Positions 8,669 through 62,720 of a stretch of 64,000 nt of DNA are shown here, in pieces. The position numbers and the translations under genes were made by a program. Location of the stretch: assembly GCA_020350205.1 (NCBI GenBank), contig CP070707.1, positions 2,812,734 through 2,876,733 of the forward strand. The letters run 5' to 3'. The notes beneath the pieces were generated by a model that was not told the DNA's origin, ran no database searches, and was given only the letters and a program-made list of their open reading frames with translations. This DNA comes from a bacterium (GTDB lineage Bacteria; Calditrichota; Calditrichia; RBG-13-44-9). Within the stretch, counting starts at the first letter, position 1. The number at the start of each line of letters is the position of its first letter.

Positions 8669-9145
8669 TATGTGGGCAGGCTTAATATCCCAATGAATGA
8701 TCATCTCTCAGTGGATTTAGACTAATATTTCCCCAAATTAAATAGCGATATCAATTATCTCTTCAACTGATGGAGATGAACATCCCTCTGTATTCCCCTG
8801 CGAAGGCCTGCCTGCCGGCAAGGCAGGGGCAATTAGGGGATTGTACTTTAATTTCTCTTTTCGCGTCAAACCTTCATAACAATTTATCACGATAAATAAA
8901 TGACCTTTGGGTGTTGCATCGAGGTCGTGAATGGCGCAAATATTATAGCGTTGTAGTACAGATGCAGCCTGGGCTTTGTGGATAAATCTTTCCTTGGCTT
9001 CCGGATCGCGGGTGAGTTCCGGGGGGAGGAATTTGAGGGCAACAGTGCGTTTTAGCTTGGTATCTTCGGCTTTGTATACCGATCCCATACCTCCCTCGCC
9101 AAGCTTTTCGAGGATTCGATAATGAGATATGGTTGTGCCGATCAT
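8669..9145 (-). pseudogene. Decayed Ser/Thr protein kinase
   Basis: [42 protein letters not shown]. Reading in frame past the stop at 8738 gives I*FGEILV*IH*EMIIHWDIKPAHI, i.e. three in-frame stops and a mutated HRDIKPAN catalytic loop. Confidence 0.88.
8782..8841. repeat. 60-bp REP-like hairpin containing a nested 21-bp palindrome, inserted in frame in the kinase pseudogene
   Basis: ATCCCTCTGTATTCCCCTGCGAAGG[CCTGCCTGCCGGCAAGGCAGG]GGCAATTAGGGGAT. The inner near-palindrome is at 8807-8827 and encodes PALPAGR on the minus strand. Confidence 0.7.
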
Positions 9146-9812: not shown

Positions 9813-10871
9813 CTATTTGAGTAGCATCATTTTCTTAATGACAACCTCACTGCCAGCCTGTAACCTGTAGATGTAAATTCCGCTGGCTAAATCTGAGGCA
9901 TTGAATTCAAAGGTATGAAAGCCAGCATGCCGAAAATCAGAAAGCAATGTGTAGATTTTTTGTCCACTCAGGCTATATATTTCCAAGGTCACATGATTGC
10001 CAACTGCCAACTGAAAACTGAAAACTGTATTTGGATTAAACGGGTTGGGATAATTTTGGTAGAGAACAAATCGCTTTACAGCTGAATTTTTCTGACTCCC
10101 TATTTCGGTCGGATCCGTGAAATATGCCCGGCGAACCAGCGAGCTGTCCAAAATAAAGGGATTGGGACAGTTATCCTGATAAGGGGCAATTAAAGAAGTA
10201 CGGACAGACTCCAGAGAATCTGCCGGATCTTTCCGATGCCAATTCAATAATTCACTTTTCTGAAGCTGAAAAAAATTGGGATCAGCCGTATTGGCTTCTT
10301 CCTTATACATGGTATAAAAATAGAACATCGCCCGCGCCACATTCCCTTTATGATCCTCCCGCGGCTCAAATAATGCAGAATTATCGTCCCTTTCACTGTA
10401 TTCATCAATGTTAGTGTTCGGAATGGTAGTTAAAACTTGGGTCTTTCGGAACCAGCGATCCGTGTTTGTATCGGGTACCTCCGCAAAGGGATCACTGCCC
10501 CGGGCAGAATTAACCTGAATACGGGTTGCATACAGATGATGCATATCGGACTTGGCATTTCCCACCGCCCCCTTACTCTGGGGCCAGGTATGTTCAGTAT
10601 CGATGCCGTTGTTATAGGCCCAGGTATTGGGATCCTGCGAAGGATCCATCCAGATCGTAAAATCTGAATAGACGCAATGCAGACTATCGTCCAGGGTATA
10701 TATTTTTGAAAACAGGGTATCCCGGGCATCGGCATAGGAGAGCACAGATTGTGGTTTATAATGCACTACCAGGCTGTCTAATAGTTCAGCACCCGTAAAA
10801 CCGGGGAAAATTGTATTATTCTGACCTTTTAACAGGGAAAGAAATAAAAATATTAGGACCACTATTTTCAT
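9813..10871 (-). CDS. Secreted endonuclease I family nuclease with a C-terminal sorting (Por_Secre_tail/T9SS type A-like) domain
   Basis: EHTWPQSKG, KSDMHHL, NSARGSDPF and FEPREDHKGNVARAMFYF are EndA/Endonuclease_1 motifs. The C-terminus is FVLYQNYPNPFNP...SGIYIYRLQAG...KKMMLLK. ATG 10871 gives the signal peptide MKIVVLIFLFLSLLKG. Confidence 0.9.
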   Translation of the reverse strand: MKIVVLIFLFLSLLKGQNNTIFPGFTGAELLDSLVVHYKPQSVLSYADARDTLFSKIYTLDDSLHCVYSDFTIWMDPSQDPNTWAYNNGIDTEHTWPQSKGAVGNAKSDMHHLYATRIQVNSARGSDPFAEVPDTNTDRWFRKTQVLTTIPNTNIDEYSERDDNSALFEPREDHKGNVARAMFYFYTMYKEEANTADPNFFQLQKSELLNWHRKDPADSLESVRTSLIAPYQDNCPNPFILDSSLVRRAYFTDPTEIGSQKNSAVKRFVLYQNYPNPFNPNTVFSFQLAVGNHVTLEIYSLSGQKIYTLLSDFRHAGFHTFEFNASDLASGIYIYRLQAGSEVVIKKMMLLK

Positions 10872-11153
10872 GGCTTTAAGGACAAAAAGAGATATATTAT
10901 AATTAACACAGATAATTATGCAAAACAATCCAATAGAAACTCTGATATCAATGTAGTAAATATCGTACTCAACATCAAATAGAATCCCTGATGTATAACT
11001 GAAAAGACTCCATTTTTCATACTTTTCCAGGCAGAGGTTTATTCCTTTTAAGCATTTGGAAAAAGAATTCTAAAAAAATATTTTTATTAACTCGACCAGC
11101 ATGAGTGAATCTATACAAATATTTCCTTTACAACATCATAACAGGAGAATATT

Positions 11154-11711
11154 ATGAAATTAATAGCTACTATCTTTGCGATTCTTTTTTTACAATTTTT
11201 ATCTATCACTTCAGCCATCGCGCAAACCGGTGCGGTGCAGAAAGCAACTGACGACAAAGATATTGAAATATTGTTCCGTATTAAATGGGATGGGAAAATT
11301 ATACCTGGTATTAGCAAAGTCAGTGGCTTAAAACGAGTAACCGATGTAATCGTCAATCGCCAGGGTGGGGATCCAAACTTGCAGAGAAGATCGCCCGGAC
11401 TCACCCAATATGAGCCCATTACCATCCAGAGACCGCGCTCGTCTGATAGAGAATTCGAAAGGTGGGCGAATAAGGTGTGGAACTTCGGATCGGGTCTTGG
11501 TTCAGAAGTATCACTGAAAGATTTCAGAAAGGATATCCGTATTGAATTGGTAACTACAACAGGGGAAATCTTACTGGCGTTTCAGGTCTACCGATGCTGG
11601 CCTTCGGAATATCAGGCACTTAGTAATTTGGATACAGACAGCGATTCCCTGGCTATGGAAACACTGACTCTTCAGCATGAGGGTTGGGAGCGGGATTACA
11701 CTATAGAATAA
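11154..11711 (+). CDS. Phage tail-tube-like protein (T4 gp19-like / CIS tube family) with an N-terminal signal peptide
   Basis: FRIKWDG..IPGISKVSGLKR, R.GGDP..R.SPG.T.YEPITIQR, WANKVWNFGSGLGSEVSLKDFRKDI, AFQVYRCWPSEY and EGWERDY are recognisable gp19-like tube motifs. RBS AGGAG precedes the ATG. The N-terminus is MKLIATIFAILFLQFLSITSAIA. Confidence 0.88.
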   Translation: MKLIATIFAILFLQFLSITSAIAQTGAVQKATDDKDIEILFRIKWDGKIIPGISKVSGLKRVTDVIVNRQGGDPNLQRRSPGLTQYEPITIQRPRSSDREFERWANKVWNFGSGLGSEVSLKDFRKDIRIELVTTTGEILLAFQVYRCWPSEYQALSNLDTDSDSLAMETLTLQHEGWERDYTIE

Positions 11712-11750
11712 AGATAAAAATGTAGAATAAAAAACAACTAGGAGGTCTTT

Positions 11751-12347
11751 ATGTTAAATAAACATCTTCAAAAAGGTAGTATAGTAGGATTCTGGATAAT
11801 AATTTTAACTTTTTCTATCAGCATAGCTGTCGAATTTTCAGTAAACACCCATCGATTTGATCCCTATAAACAATTCAAATTCAGAGTAAAATGGGATGGG
11901 AAATATATACCAGGTGTCTTTCGGGTGAATGGGTTACATCGAAATACCATGGTCATTACAATGCGCGAGGGCACAGGCCCAAATGTACAAAAAAAGATGC
12001 CTGGAGAAACGGTATATGAACAGATAATCCTGGAGCGAGGACGAACTCATGATACCGCCTTTGAACAATGGGCCAATAAAGTATGGAATTATGGGTCAGG
12101 TCTTGGAAATGAAGTGTCACTGCAAGATTTTCGGAAAGATATTATCATCGAATTGTTAAATGAAACCGGTCAGATTGTTATGGCTTTCAAGGTTTACAGA
12201 TGCTGGCCCTCTCGTTACAGCCCTTTGCAGGAATTAGATGCTAATAGTAATGAGATCGCAGTGGAAAAGATTGTTCTAGAACACGAAGGTTGGGAAAGAG
12301 ATTACGAAGTTCATGAGCCTCTAGAACCCTCTTTTACAGAGCCATGA
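11751..12347 (+). CDS. Phage tail-tube-like protein (T4 gp19-like / CIS tube family) with an N-terminal signal peptide
   Basis: FSVNTHRFDPYKQFKFRVKWDG, ILERGRTHDTAFEQWANKVWNYGSGLG.EVSL.DFRKDIIIE, AFKVYRCWPS, LDANSNEIAVE..LEHEGWERDYEVHEP.EPSF. RBS GGAGG; hydrophobic leader ...SIVGFWIIILTFSISIA. Confidence 0.92.
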   Translation: MLNKHLQKGSIVGFWIIILTFSISIAVEFSVNTHRFDPYKQFKFRVKWDGKYIPGVFRVNGLHRNTMVITMREGTGPNVQKKMPGETVYEQIILERGRTHDTAFEQWANKVWNYGSGLGNEVSLQDFRKDIIIELLNETGQIVMAFKVYRCWPSRYSPLQELDANSNEIAVEKIVLEHEGWERDYEVHEPLEPSFTEP

Positions 12348-12495
12348 TAATAGTTTTTTCTCCAAAGAAATTCGTAAATAAATAAATCCCGCTCGAATTA
12401 ATACGGACAAAATTTCTTTAAAAATTCAAATTCAGATCCCAATTGGATATATAACCGTAAATTATCCGGACAGCTTTCGGTATCATTATTGAATC

Positions 12496-13281
12496 TTACT
12501 GGCAGACCAAACCCTGAATTTTCTCGGGTAACACAAAGAAATTTTTATCCAGCGCCATATTATGTTCAATTCGCTTTACCCTGGAAATCAAAACCTGTGA
12601 AGCCATCTCAATTCGGGTTTCGAAAGGTAATTTTATGCCGTCGACTTCACGGTAATCAGAAAAATAGGATCGCACCAGCAGACTTCCCATTTCACTCCTT
12701 AATTCCGTTTTCAGGGCAATCATGAGCATCGTCTCAGGATCGAAATAAAGGAGCTGCGAATCGGCCTCATAGGGTTCGAGATATACCACAAAACAATGCT
12801 GACCATTCACTTTTTCCAATCCCCGGTATTCCACTTTTTGGTAGATTTCCCTCCAACACACAAATCGGTCCAGCATATTCAGGTGCAAAGCATTTACCCG
12901 TTCCTTATCAGATTTAATAATGGGACCTTTCACGTCGGACAATTCCCACACTGTTTCTCCATCACACCCGCTCATCACCGTACCGGTAACCAGTGATTCT
13001 GTGATCACTCGACTTAGATTCGGTTTCTGTGCATATACGACTATGTTCATGAAAATATTACTTCCCTGAATTTCAATCTCGGATTGGGTCATCCGATTTT
13101 TAATTTTTTGGTAGGCATCTATACCACCGGTCACCCGGAGATAAGCATCCAGGATTTCTTCGGCACCGGGTGAAAATTGAGCATAAGCACACGGAAGAAT
13201 CAGGAGGATACTCCAAATAAATCCCATCATTAAAGTTTTGAATAACCAAATCTTCAGGTTAAAAAAATTACAGATTTTCAT
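12496..13281 (-). CDS. Exported protein, LolA-like / outer-membrane lipoprotein-sorting fold (tentative)
   Basis: Signal peptide, then AEEILDAYLRVTGG; repeated beta-strand pattern, YFDPET.L, FSDYREVDGIKLPF. Confidence 0.6.
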   Translation of the reverse strand: MKICNFFNLKIWLFKTLMMGFIWSILLILPCAYAQFSPGAEEILDAYLRVTGGIDAYQKIKNRMTQSEIEIQGSNIFMNIVVYAQKPNLSRVITESLVTGTVMSGCDGETVWELSDVKGPIIKSDKERVNALHLNMLDRFVCWREIYQKVEYRGLEKVNGQHCFVVYLEPYEADSQLLYFDPETMLMIALKTELRSEMGSLLVRSYFSDYREVDGIKLPFETRIEMASQVLISRVKRIEHNMALDKNFFVLPEKIQGLVCQ

Positions 13282-14647
13282 TTCCCTCTCCTGTGGTTTC
13301 TTTGGGTCTGATATTTGATTTACTATTTAATGTTCCTGCCTCGATCCATTGTATTGCCGCCTCAATAACCGGATCTTTCCTCTGAAGAAGTAATTGCGGG
13401 GTTAAGGAAATCTGCTCATCCGGTTCCAATCCACCACCTTCCAGCATTTCTCCGGTAACGGTTTTATAGCAGGCCGTGGCATATTGAAAGCCATCCCCGT
13501 TGGGCAGTCTTTCCAAGGTCGATCCCAAAACAGCCCCCGCACTTCGCGAACCAAACAATCTGGCCCTGCCCGCATCACGCAAACCGGCCGCCATGATTTC
13601 AGCAGCACAGGCGCTGTGCCCGTCAATCAGAATTGCCAATTTCCCACGGAATACTTCCGGCCGGGGAGAGACCACTATTCGCAACGACATATCCCGGTAG
13701 CACATACTACCGATATAAGCCCCTTTTTCCACTATAAACCACCCCCCCATTCCCTGGACCATATTGAGCAAGCCGCCCGGATTCCCGCGCAGATCGATGA
13801 TAATTCCGGGACTATCCATAAATTGTTCCACGGCAGTATTAAAAACCGGCATGAGATGCACCGGATCCATAAAGGCATTGAACGCAATGTATCCGATGCC
13901 GGTATGAAGAGTATCTGTTTCAATCCATATCTGTTCCGGCGGGAAAAATCCCACCTGAAATAGCTCACTCGCCGGTTCCATGAAGGTCAGGTTGACGGCG
14001 CAGGTATCATTTACTCCTTTGCGATATACGATGTTGATACTGTCCCCAACCTCTCCTTTTAGGCAATGATTGACCCAGCTTGACAGGATAATATCAGCGT
14101 ATCGCTCCTCTGCCAAATTTTTTGCATGGAGCACCAATTCATTATATAATATCTTTTGATTAACTGAAATAATTTCACTCCCATAGGGAATTCCGGCAAG
14201 GTATACCGGAAAATTTCGTTTTATCCTGACCACATAGACCCGATTATCCAGCACCCGGATGTCCAAGCCCAGAGTTCCCCGGAAAGAATCCTGGAATATG
14301 CTTTTTTCTATTTGTGTATAAAACGAAGAGGGAATAAGCTGGTAATGAGATAATCCCAGGGTATCAATCATTCTCGCCAGAATCCGGCTGGTTTCTTTTT
14401 TGGATTTCGCCTGAAGGATATCCGGATAGAGGCAATCGAAAATACCCTGCCAGTCTATGCTTCCAAAAGTTGGATCATAGTGTTTTTCATGAATGGTTTT
14501 CCAGACATATTCGAATGACTGAGTCGCCAGACTTTTCTCTGTTGTAGTCAGGGTATCCATTGCCCGGGCTTGCAGAGAATTGTTCTGGATTAAAAAAATA
14601 ATCCCGGCGGATAAAATGAGGATTCTCAAATAACAAATCATGACCAT
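13268..14647 (-). CDS. S41 family peptidase (C-terminal processing protease-like, with PDZ domain)
   Basis: GTLGLDIR PDZ segment, IGYIAFNAF, IIDLRGNPGG, LIDGHSACAAE, GSRSAGAV, G..LEG.GLEPD. Confidence 0.9.
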   Translation of the reverse strand: MVMICYLRILILSAGIIFLIQNNSLQARAMDTLTTTEKSLATQSFEYVWKTIHEKHYDPTFGSIDWQGIFDCLYPDILQAKSKKETSRILARMIDTLGLSHYQLIPSSFYTQIEKSIFQDSFRGTLGLDIRVLDNRVYVVRIKRNFPVYLAGIPYGSEIISVNQKILYNELVLHAKNLAEERYADIILSSWVNHCLKGEVGDSINIVYRKGVNDTCAVNLTFMEPASELFQVGFFPPEQIWIETDTLHTGIGYIAFNAFMDPVHLMPVFNTAVEQFMDSPGIIIDLRGNPGGLLNMVQGMGGWFIVEKGAYIGSMCYRDMSLRIVVSPRPEVFRGKLAILIDGHSACAAEIMAAGLRDAGRARLFGSRSAGAVLGSTLERLPNGDGFQYATACYKTVTGEMLEGGGLEPDEQISLTPQLLLQRKDPVIEAAIQWIEAGTLNSKSNIRPKETTGEGNENL

Positions 14648-62288: not shown

Positions 62289-62720
62289 ATGAGCATGATT
62301 TATGAACAAGCTGCTGCCTTGCCGGTACGTCTGGTAGCAAAAAATATACAAATTTTACTGGTTCAGACTCGCAGTGGGGATAAATGGACTATCCCCAAGG
62401 GGATCATTGATCCGGGATTTACCGCCCAGGAGACCGCACTTGCCGAAGCATACGAAGAAGCGGGTTTGAAAGGAGCTTTGCATCCGGAGATATTTGGCAC
62501 TTTCAGTTATTCCAAGTGGCAAGGGACCTGCATAGTGCAGGTTTTCCTCATGAAAGTTTACCAAGAACTTATTCACTGGCCAGAGCGATACTTCAGAGAA
62601 CGCAAATGGGTTAATTTAGAGCAGAGCGCCCGGATGCTTAAATATCCTGCTCTTAGCAAAATTATTGATAAAATCAACAAAGACACACTGAATTCAGCTG
62701 GATTTTGGAAAGACATATAA
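62289..62720 (+). CDS. NUDIX hydrolase (DIPP/Ap4A-like)
   Basis: QAAALP, W.IPKG, EAYEEAG nudix box, WPE...R.R.W. Confidence 0.88.
   Translation: MSMIYEQAAALPVRLVAKNIQILLVQTRSGDKWTIPKGIIDPGFTAQETALAEAYEEAGLKGALHPEIFGTFSYSKWQGTCIVQVFLMKVYQELIHWPERYFRERKWVNLEQSARMLKYPALSKIIDKINKDTLNSAGFWKDI

Follow-up and report, generated by a model that had tools for sequence, protein, structure and literature searches.

To our knowledge, all characterized tubes of the phage-tail type, namely those of phage tails, tailocins, extracellular contractile injection systems (eCIS), and type VI secretion systems (T6SS), form within the cytoplasm on a baseplate, enclosed by or next to a sheath. Here we describe two neighboring genes, T1 and T2, which encode proteins of this tube family with N-terminal leaders of the export type. 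They are located in a 64,000 nt stretch of the genome of a bacterium of the Calditrichota (assembly GCA_020350205.1, contig CP070707.1, positions 2,812,734–2,876,733), in the following referred to as the window. We consider it probable that T1 and T2 represent a Sec-exported, signal-peptidase-cut, self-assembling two-subunit module with a tube fold, which derives from an eCIS tube and has no contractile machine. The first-pass annotation of the window knew of no such exported tube pair, and our search of the literature on tube proteins with export signals or signal peptides found no description of one either.

The open reading frames (ORFs) of T1 (185 amino acids) and T2 (198 amino acids) are co-oriented and separated by 39 nt. 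A Shine-Dalgarno motif is present at each annotated ATG (Table 1). The first-pass annotation had described a tandem pair with strong ribosome binding sites encoding gp19-like tube proteins, and the profile searches agreed with this description. The PF06841 (Phage_T4_gp19) profile with a cut-off of 28.2 bits was matched by T1 with 110.6 bits (E 6.3e-32) and by T2 with 136.2 bits (E 8.2e-40), covering positions 4–134 and 2–134 of the 134 profile positions, respectively. The scores for TIGR02241 (cut-off 62.4 bits) were 102.3 bits for T1 and 134 bits for T2. The NCBIfam equivalogs for the eCIS inner tube (CIS1_fam, cut-off 220 bits) and the tube adaptor (CIS5_fam, cut-off 260 bits) were matched with only 28.8–54.1 bits, far below the cut-offs. 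T1 and T2 share 53.5% identity and are the sole PF06841 genes of the 4.06 Mb single-contig genome.

The AlphaFold2 (AF2) models of both proteins, with a predicted local distance difference test (pLDDT) score of 79.8 for T1 and 77.6 for T2, showed an N-terminal helix (residues 2–27 in T1 and 2–24 in T2), followed by a low-confidence stretch and the tube beta-sandwich. In T1, the residues 26–32 between the helix and the core had a pLDDT below 50. The best Foldseek matches of both models were tube chains of contractile injection systems (CIS), namely AlgoCIS (7adz), Anabaena CIS (7b5h), PVC, and Afp, with E values from 2e-11 to 1e-9 and a target template modeling (TM) score of 0.71–0.78 for the top matches. 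T2 matched 7adz_1a with an E value of 2.3e-11 and a TM score of 0.78, and the top matches for T1 were 7b5h_AN and 7adz_1a (E 1e-10). The nearest solved chains by sequence were All3324 (7b5h, E 1.6e-16) and 7adz.

In each of the two leaders in the window, a basic start is followed by a hydrophobic core, and position -1 is occupied by a small residue. Leaders were called by heuristic residue and hydropathy statistics on 170 homologs and the window proteins, with hydropathy taken as the best 11-residue Kyte-Doolittle window. Among 228 cluster representatives, 106 had a leader followed by the conserved N-terminal arm of T2 (T2-like), 64 had a leader but no arm (T1-like), 56 were leaderless, and two were truncated proteins with neither leader nor arm. 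The 106 T2-like leaders had a median length of 26 residues, with a median of two Lys or Arg and a mean of 0.07 Asp or Glu in the first 10 residues, and their Kyte-Doolittle value was never below 1.94. Position -1, three residues before an invariant Phe, was Ala in 85, Ser in 11, Gly in eight, and Thr in two of these proteins; position -3 was mainly small or aliphatic. For the 64 T1-like leaders the Kyte-Doolittle value was 2.16 or higher (median 3.0), the first 8 residues contained a median of two Lys or Arg, and most leaders ended in a small residue followed by Gln. These statistics agree with the tripartite leader of Sec/signal peptidase I substrates (basic n-region, hydrophobic h-region, small residues at -3 and -1), which had been noticed in T1 and T2 from the window alone. 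All 170 leader-class homologs carried a leader, and conservation of signal peptides in homologs had been named beforehand as a check. Identity among the leaders was 0.28–0.30 versus 0.70 for the mature part, which argues for selection on the properties of a signal peptide and not on the leader sequence as such.

The search with T2 retrieved many proteins of about 198 amino acids, in which the first ~26 residues were divergent in sequence but without exception combined a basic start with a hydrophobic core and closed with a small-x-small end. After the leader these relatives have the conserved sequence A/x-E/D/Q-F-x-V-N..RFDPYKQFKFRVKWDG, and close relatives of 173–176 amino acids begin with MAQFSVN. 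The search with T1 gave a like picture for its own type. In the T2-like proteins, the predicted cut places the mature N-terminus two residues ahead of the invariant Phe, exactly at the position where the leaderless MAQ-F relatives begin after trimming of Met. The predicted mature end of T2 itself, VEFSVNTHRFDPYK, aligns to the same position of the Met-trimmed cytoplasmic relatives (MAQFSVN..RFDPYK), in line with the family start given in the first-pass annotation.

It had also been argued that neither protein has another start before the conserved domain and that the leaders can hardly be mis-called starts. In the strict sense this was true of T2 alone, in which the stretch from its ATG to the conserved core is free of further ATG, GTG, and TTG codons. 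T1 has no further Met, but an in-frame GTG is located 15 codons and a TTG 3 codons ahead of the core, neither of them with a Shine-Dalgarno motif. The frame was open from the leader ATG in every leader-bearing locus, and a strong Shine-Dalgarno motif was present 4–6 nt before this ATG in most homologous loci. The open frames, the Shine-Dalgarno motifs, and the lack of another start in T2 of the window support translation from the annotated starts.

The predicted +1 residue of T1 is Gln. Gln following heuristic leaders was four-fold enriched in the genome of the window (16.9% versus a background of 4.2%), and T1 fits this enrichment. A Q-rule was described for Bacteroidetes and stated not to cover the whole Fibrobacteres-Chlorobi-Bacteroidetes (FCB) group (PMC5837995). 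The enrichment seen here with a crude heuristic is similar, but weaker and partial. Other export routes were considered and rejected. A loose RR motif as in twin-arginine (Tat) export was found in just 16 of the 106 T2-like and one of the 64 T1-like leaders, and a lipobox-like motif in just five and two, respectively; neither window protein has one of these motifs. The leader features make it very likely that T1 and T2 carry genuine export signals, and we infer from them that both proteins are exported and cleaved.

The two paralogs differ outside a common core. Both retain the WANKVWNxGSGLGxEVSLxDFRKD block, VYRCWPS, and HEGWERDY. T2 in addition retains the arm FSVN..RFDPYKQF and the tail EPxEPSFTEP. 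Residues F29, N32, R35, D37, P38, Y39, and K40 of the arm were invariant in the alignment, as were E189, P190, and E192 of the tail, and P193, F195, and P198 were nearly so. The arm was of low confidence in the AF2 monomer model. In T1, the arm gives way to a variable linker of some 16 residues that is polar or rich in proline, the protein ends three residues after ERDY, and RPRS is found where T2 and the canonical tubes carry ERGRTH. Terminal extensions of solved tubes take part in ring-ring contacts; no solved structure covers the arm and tail of this lineage. By comparison of the sequences, T2 would be able to stack, and T1 would form or join rings but be unable to extend a stack on at least one face. 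That T1 acts specifically as a cap or an initiator is conceivable on the same grounds, but rather doubtful.

We searched the window and the complete 4.06 Mb genome for parts of a contractile machine. The absence of sheath and baseplate genes from the 64 kb, noted at first pass, extended to the whole genome: neither the window nor the genome contains a homolog of the eCIS sheath, of baseplate-J, of the Pvc16_N cap, of eCIS_core, or of the CIS ATPase. The sheath profiles PF04984 and PF17482 had no match in this genome or in the four other genomes that carry the pair, and none of the five genomes of the phylum that bear the pair has Phage_sheath_1C. With six sheaths from the parent eCIS lineage as queries, tblastn gave no match in the genome of the window, nor was there a match for Baseplate_J (PF04865). 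Tblastn with Pvc16_N, eCIS_core, and CIS ATPase gave weak generic AAA matches only in this genome. For comparison, nine of the 14 searched genomes of the phylum with ordinary tubes have a sheath gene adjoining the tube gene.

The single match to PF04965 (gp25-like) in the genome is TssE of a T6SS (E 6e-16). A genome-wide absence of CIS genes, which the first-pass annotation had proposed to check, was thus seen for all eCIS components and for sheaths in the five pair-bearing genomes, but the genome of the window does encode a T6SS. Its cluster at genome positions 2755024–2772615 is outside of the window, about 51 kb upstream of T1, and comprises TssB- and TssC-like proteins, an Hcp-like protein of 154 amino acids, TssE, TssF/G-like proteins, a ClpV-like protein of 872 amino acids, and a VgrG-like protein. 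TssC was found in three genomes of the same genus only and not in the other four pair-bearing genomes. We concluded that the T6SS is unrelated to the pair and rejected a link.

To trace the origin of the pair we scanned species genomes, one per species, and kept the best 80 of 590 relatives. In 67 of these 80 best loci, a leaderless tube gene (MAQFSVN..DPYKNFKF) directly followed a sheath gene and preceded Pvc16_N, AAA ATPase, and eCIS_core genes, which together represent complete eCIS loci. The hosts were Nitrospira, Beta- and Gammaproteobacteria, Cyanobacteria, Acidobacteriota, Bacteroidota, Chloroflexota, and Methanothrix. These leaderless tubes are 62–70% identical to T2, and all 69 tubes in an eCIS context begin with M-A/T/P/V-Q/E-F. 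None of the leader-bearing loci examined had CIS genes nearby. The canonical eCIS tubes of this lineage have a mean pairwise identity of 0.86, which is unusually high across many bacterial phyla and archaea of the Methanothrix/Methanosarcinales (loci L015–L089, tube at ~10001–10520). It suggests that the gene spread horizontally in recent time, that it is under very strong constraint, or both.

Eight leaderless orphans without a CIS gene nearby were found in Dadabacteria, Anaerolineales, Syntrophaceae, and others. The orphans have derived residues in common with the T2-like and T1-like proteins, namely DPYKQF, ERGRTHD, CWPS, and HEGWERDY, where the eCIS tubes have DPYKNF, ERGVTHD, CWVS, and NEGWERDY. 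Four single orphans from Dadabacteria-type genomes (L006, L016, L017, L019; tube at ~10001–10522 in L006) are syntenic, following a DJ-1/PfpI gene, and far from CIS genes. Judged by their sequence, they are predicted cytoplasmic tubes without a sheath.

Phylogenetic trees separated the eCIS tubes (support 90–98) from the main T2-like clade (95–98) and from the T1-like clade (99), a clade of 68 rows that includes T1. The trees also contained further small leader-bearing groups with leaderless orphans scattered between them, and their deep branches would be compatible with one gain of the leader as well as with several. Copies from Eisenbacteria and Calditrichia grouped in parallel in the T1 and T2 clades, which fits an old duplication followed by joint inheritance. 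The first-pass annotation had listed close leaderless homologs in complete CIS loci as an observation that would speak against an exported tube. Such homologs do exist. Nevertheless, since they form a clade of their own, and the leader-bearing proteins form separate clades and were never found in a CIS locus, the leaderless tubes mark the origin of the predicted exported pair and do not refute the idea of an export.

The tandem arrangement was conserved in all ten leader-bearing loci of this type with enough DNA (the window, L003, L004, L008, L010, L011, L012, L014, L092, and L096), with Calditrichaceae, Calditrichia, and Eisenbacteria as named sources; the named sources of homologous proteins also include KSB1 and Latescibacterota. 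An all-against-all comparison of the ORFs of the ten loci revealed nothing in common but T1 and T2. Within the phylum, adjacent tube pairs were present in five of 86 genomes, all of them from the family of the window (Calditrichaceae). A further leader-bearing group (L028, L094, L095) has a single T2-like gene with no partner. A 168-residue ORF called upstream of the single exported tube in L094 and L095 was considered as a partner and rejected, as it looks non-coding (rich in Arg, Pro, and Cys, and of no family).

Export leaders were also present in at least 11 of the 150 nearest 50%-identity cluster representatives, and a part of these have lipobox-like sites and long low-complexity linkers. 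In five more distant tube homologs (P0298, P0263, P0251, P0232, P0266), a lipobox-like or classical leader is separated from the tube domain by a low-complexity linker of 20–50 residues, made up, for instance, of a TQN repeat or of the stretch PTPVPTPAP. Their sequences suggest tethered, exported variants. Another PF06841 match, at positions 62620–63042 of contig C2 in genome G056 of the same order, has one in-frame TAG in an otherwise good frame of 189 amino acids and could be a pseudogene or a sequencing error.

The immediate neighbors of the pair in the window are unrelated to it: an endonuclease I sorted by the type IX secretion system (T9SS), a LolA-like protein, a peptidase of family S41, a regulator of the ArsR type, and a histidine kinase together with a regulator of the NtrC type. 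The endonuclease I gene with its T9SS C-terminal sorting domain (9813–10928, minus strand) is divergent to T1. Together with the LolA-like protein (12496–13281) and the S41 peptidase (13268–14647) it makes up a neighborhood rich in exported proteins. None of these three genes was kept beside the pair in the other genomes. A scan for terminator-like patterns found one site 3' of T2 (Table 1), a count no higher than expected by chance. Farther upstream, an ORF of 135 amino acids (8738–9145, minus strand) matches the N-terminal lobe of a Ser/Thr kinase alone (Pkinase positions 1–89 of 263, below the cut-off) and is probably a gene fragment or pseudogene.

Table 1. Features of the T1-T2 region; positions refer to the window.
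Feature	Position	Strand	Basis and remarks
Shine-Dalgarno motif AGGAG	11143..11147	+	Read in sequence; ends 6 nt upstream of T1 ATG
T1, tube-fold protein, predicted exported, without N-terminal arm and C-terminal tail	11154..11711	+	ORF, profiles, AF2, tree
T1 signal peptide, residues 1–23 MKLIATIFAILFLQFLSITSAIA, predicted cut before Q24	11154..11222	+	Features of 64 T1-like representatives
T1 variable polar linker, residues 24–39	11223..11270	+	Alignment: no conservation; arm columns empty in T1-class consensus
Shine-Dalgarno motif AGGAGG	11740..11745	+	Read in sequence; 5 nt upstream of T2 ATG
T2, predicted exported tube protein, complete canonical eCIS inner-tube sequence plus leader	11751..12347	+	ORF, profiles, AF2
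T2 signal peptide, residues 1–26 MLNKHLQKGSIVGFWIIILTFSISIA, predicted cut before V27	11751..11828	+	Features of 106 T2-like representatives
T2 conserved N-terminal arm VEFSVNTHRFDPYKQF	11829..11876	+	Invariant residues; in canonical tubes, not in T1
T2 acidic/proline C-terminal tail EVHEPLEPSFTEP	12306..12344	+	Conserved; in canonical eCIS tubes, not in T1
Weak terminator-like hairpin with T-rich run	12466..12490	+	Pattern scan; 3' of T2

In the explanation we prefer, T1 and T2 would descend from the Cis1/Afp1-type inner-tube subunit of a single widespread eCIS lineage, and would have left the contractile machine and gained Sec-type leaders cleavable by signal peptidase I. Translated from the annotated ATGs, the proteins would be exported unfolded across the inner membrane and cleaved, whereby the cut in T2 would restore the N-terminus of a cytoplasmic tube protein. 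Folding would take place outside the cytoplasm, either in the periplasm of this diderm or farther out, and the two proteins would assemble into rings or short stacks of both subunits with no sheath, baseplate, spike, or ATPase. T2 keeps every conserved element of a polymerizing tube subunit, the N-terminal arm and the C-terminal tail among them. T1 keeps the ring-forming core alone and would most likely be a partner that starts, ends, or limits the assembly of T2. We lean slightly towards an assembly of T1 and T2 into rings or tubes. Family membership and fold, the conserved leaders and cut site, the conserved two-gene module, and the absence of eCIS genes were observed, whereas export and cleavage, oligomerization, the division of labor between T1 and T2, their final location, and a biological role are proposed. 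The view of the first-pass annotation that a tube fold was removed from the contractile machine and sent across the inner membrane agrees well with the ~170 leader clusters, the module with its differing neighbors, and the sheath-less genomes that carry the pair. More tentatively, the T1-T2 pairs and the single and lipoprotein-type exported homologs may together form an unrecognized class of sheath-less and baseplate-less rings or tubules of the envelope or extracellular space, in which T2 stacks and T1 is the initiator or cap. With similar reservation, this class may span Calditrichota, Eisenbacteria, KSB1, Latescibacterota, and other lineages.

Several points weigh against an exported, self-assembling pair. 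Tube proteins normally need a baseplate hub to start polymerization, and none is present here. We looked for charge complementarity between T1 and T2 and found none. The pair is patchy within its family (five of 17 genomes) and present in no other genome of its own genus; because of this distribution, we regard the T1-T2 module as accessory. Finally, the hydrophobic stretch of T2 in the window is long (18 uncharged residues) and the c-region is poor, and this copy could stay anchored in the membrane. An uncleaved signal anchor, by which the tube domains would remain tied to the inner membrane at its outer face, would also be in line with the single continuous helix that AF2 models for residues 2–24 of T2 and with the lipoprotein-like, and hence tethered, nature of some relatives. 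Nevertheless, we consider it unlikely, as an uncleaved anchor needs neither the small residue found at -1 in 106 of 106 T2-like proteins nor a mostly small or aliphatic residue at -3. Moreover, a cut would restore the native N-terminus of the arm, and most homologs have a classical polar c-region (TLSQA, ANA, AKA). It is far less probable that the leaders are an artefact of start-site choice and that translation begins after the hydrophobic segment, giving ordinary cytoplasmic tubes or decaying remnants. The in-frame GTG and TTG before the T1 core would allow this. T2, however, has no alternative start, most loci have the Shine-Dalgarno motif before the leader ATG, the leader frame is open with signal-peptide features kept in ~170 clusters, and the mature parts are strongly constrained.

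Other alternatives concern the function of the proteins. Exported copies of a tube could serve as an envelope decoy or immunity factor, which would bind arriving phage tails, eCIS or T6SS tubes, or the tips of these, within the periplasm or on the cell surface and so block injection. The identity of 62–70% that T2 shares with the tube of an environmental eCIS lineage of very wide distribution would suit a decoy, and a patchy accessory distribution and variable genomic position are also seen for defence genes. We regard this as improbable, since the neighbors do not form a defence island, a hollow ring would not obviously block a tube, and the strong conservation (mean pairwise identity 0.70) is unlike the diversifying pattern typical of decoys. 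Membership in a known defence system was also rejected, as no PADLOC model matched at E 0.01. Finally, T1 and T2 might act in trans as parts of the T6SS 51 kb upstream, which looks complete, or of a hidden CIS. There is very little to commend this idea: an Hcp is already encoded in the T6SS cluster itself, TssC and a sheath are both missing from the other four genomes with the pair, and a Sec leader is incompatible with tube assembly in the cytoplasm.

If exported and self-assembling tubes are indeed encoded by the pair, a conserved and selectively maintained Sec-routed tube family with no machine parts would show that the tube module can work alone outside the cytoplasm. Such a family would raise the questions of how a tube or ring is nucleated with no hub, which job a ~4-nm channel or carrier ring has in uncultured sediment bacteria, be it in their periplasm or on their surface, and whether exported self-assembling tubes are suitable as simple protein nanotube scaffolds. 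The relatives also form a clean evolutionary series, from a tube in an eCIS locus via a leaderless orphan to a predicted exported single copy or pair. In a granule secretome study, a Phage_T4_gp19 protein was the most abundant member of an extracellular protein cluster; the presence of a leader was not stated.

The closest described systems are the Cis1-type inner tubes of extracellular and thylakoid-anchored CIS (AlgoCIS 7adz, Anabaena All3324 7b5h, Afp1 6rao, Pvc1 6j0b), which belong to the same Pfam and TIGRFAM family as T1 and T2 and have the same fold. Closer in sequence are Cis1-type tubes with no solved structure from Nitrospira, Betaproteobacteria, Cyanobacteria, and Methanothrix, with 62–70% identity to T2, which keeps their N-terminal arm and C-terminal tail. 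In contrast to all of these, T1 and T2 have Sec-type leaders (23 and 26 residues), form a fixed module of two paralogs, lack sheath, baseplate, cap, and ATPase genes both nearby and genome-wide, and reach 34–54 bits on the CIS1 and CIS5 equivalogs versus 220 and 260. The leaderless orphans from Dadabacteria, Anaerolineales, and Syntrophaceae (L006, L007, L013, L016, L017, L019, L020, L077) share CWPS, ERGRTHD, DPYKQF, and HEGWERDY with T1 and T2 and are also located outside eCIS loci, but they are single genes with no leader and begin with MAQF or MVQF like cytoplasmic tubes. Hcp (TssD) of the T6SS has a distant fold of the same tube superfamily (Foldseek 6bdc and 8gra, E ~1e-5). T1 and T2 belong to a different family, as no Hcp family was matched in Pfam, and the Hcp of the genome itself is encoded 60 kb away. 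Hcp is cytoplasmic and leaves the cell via the T6SS, not via Sec. As it builds stable hexameric rings unaided and serves as a carrier, it is a plausible functional analog of T1 and T2.

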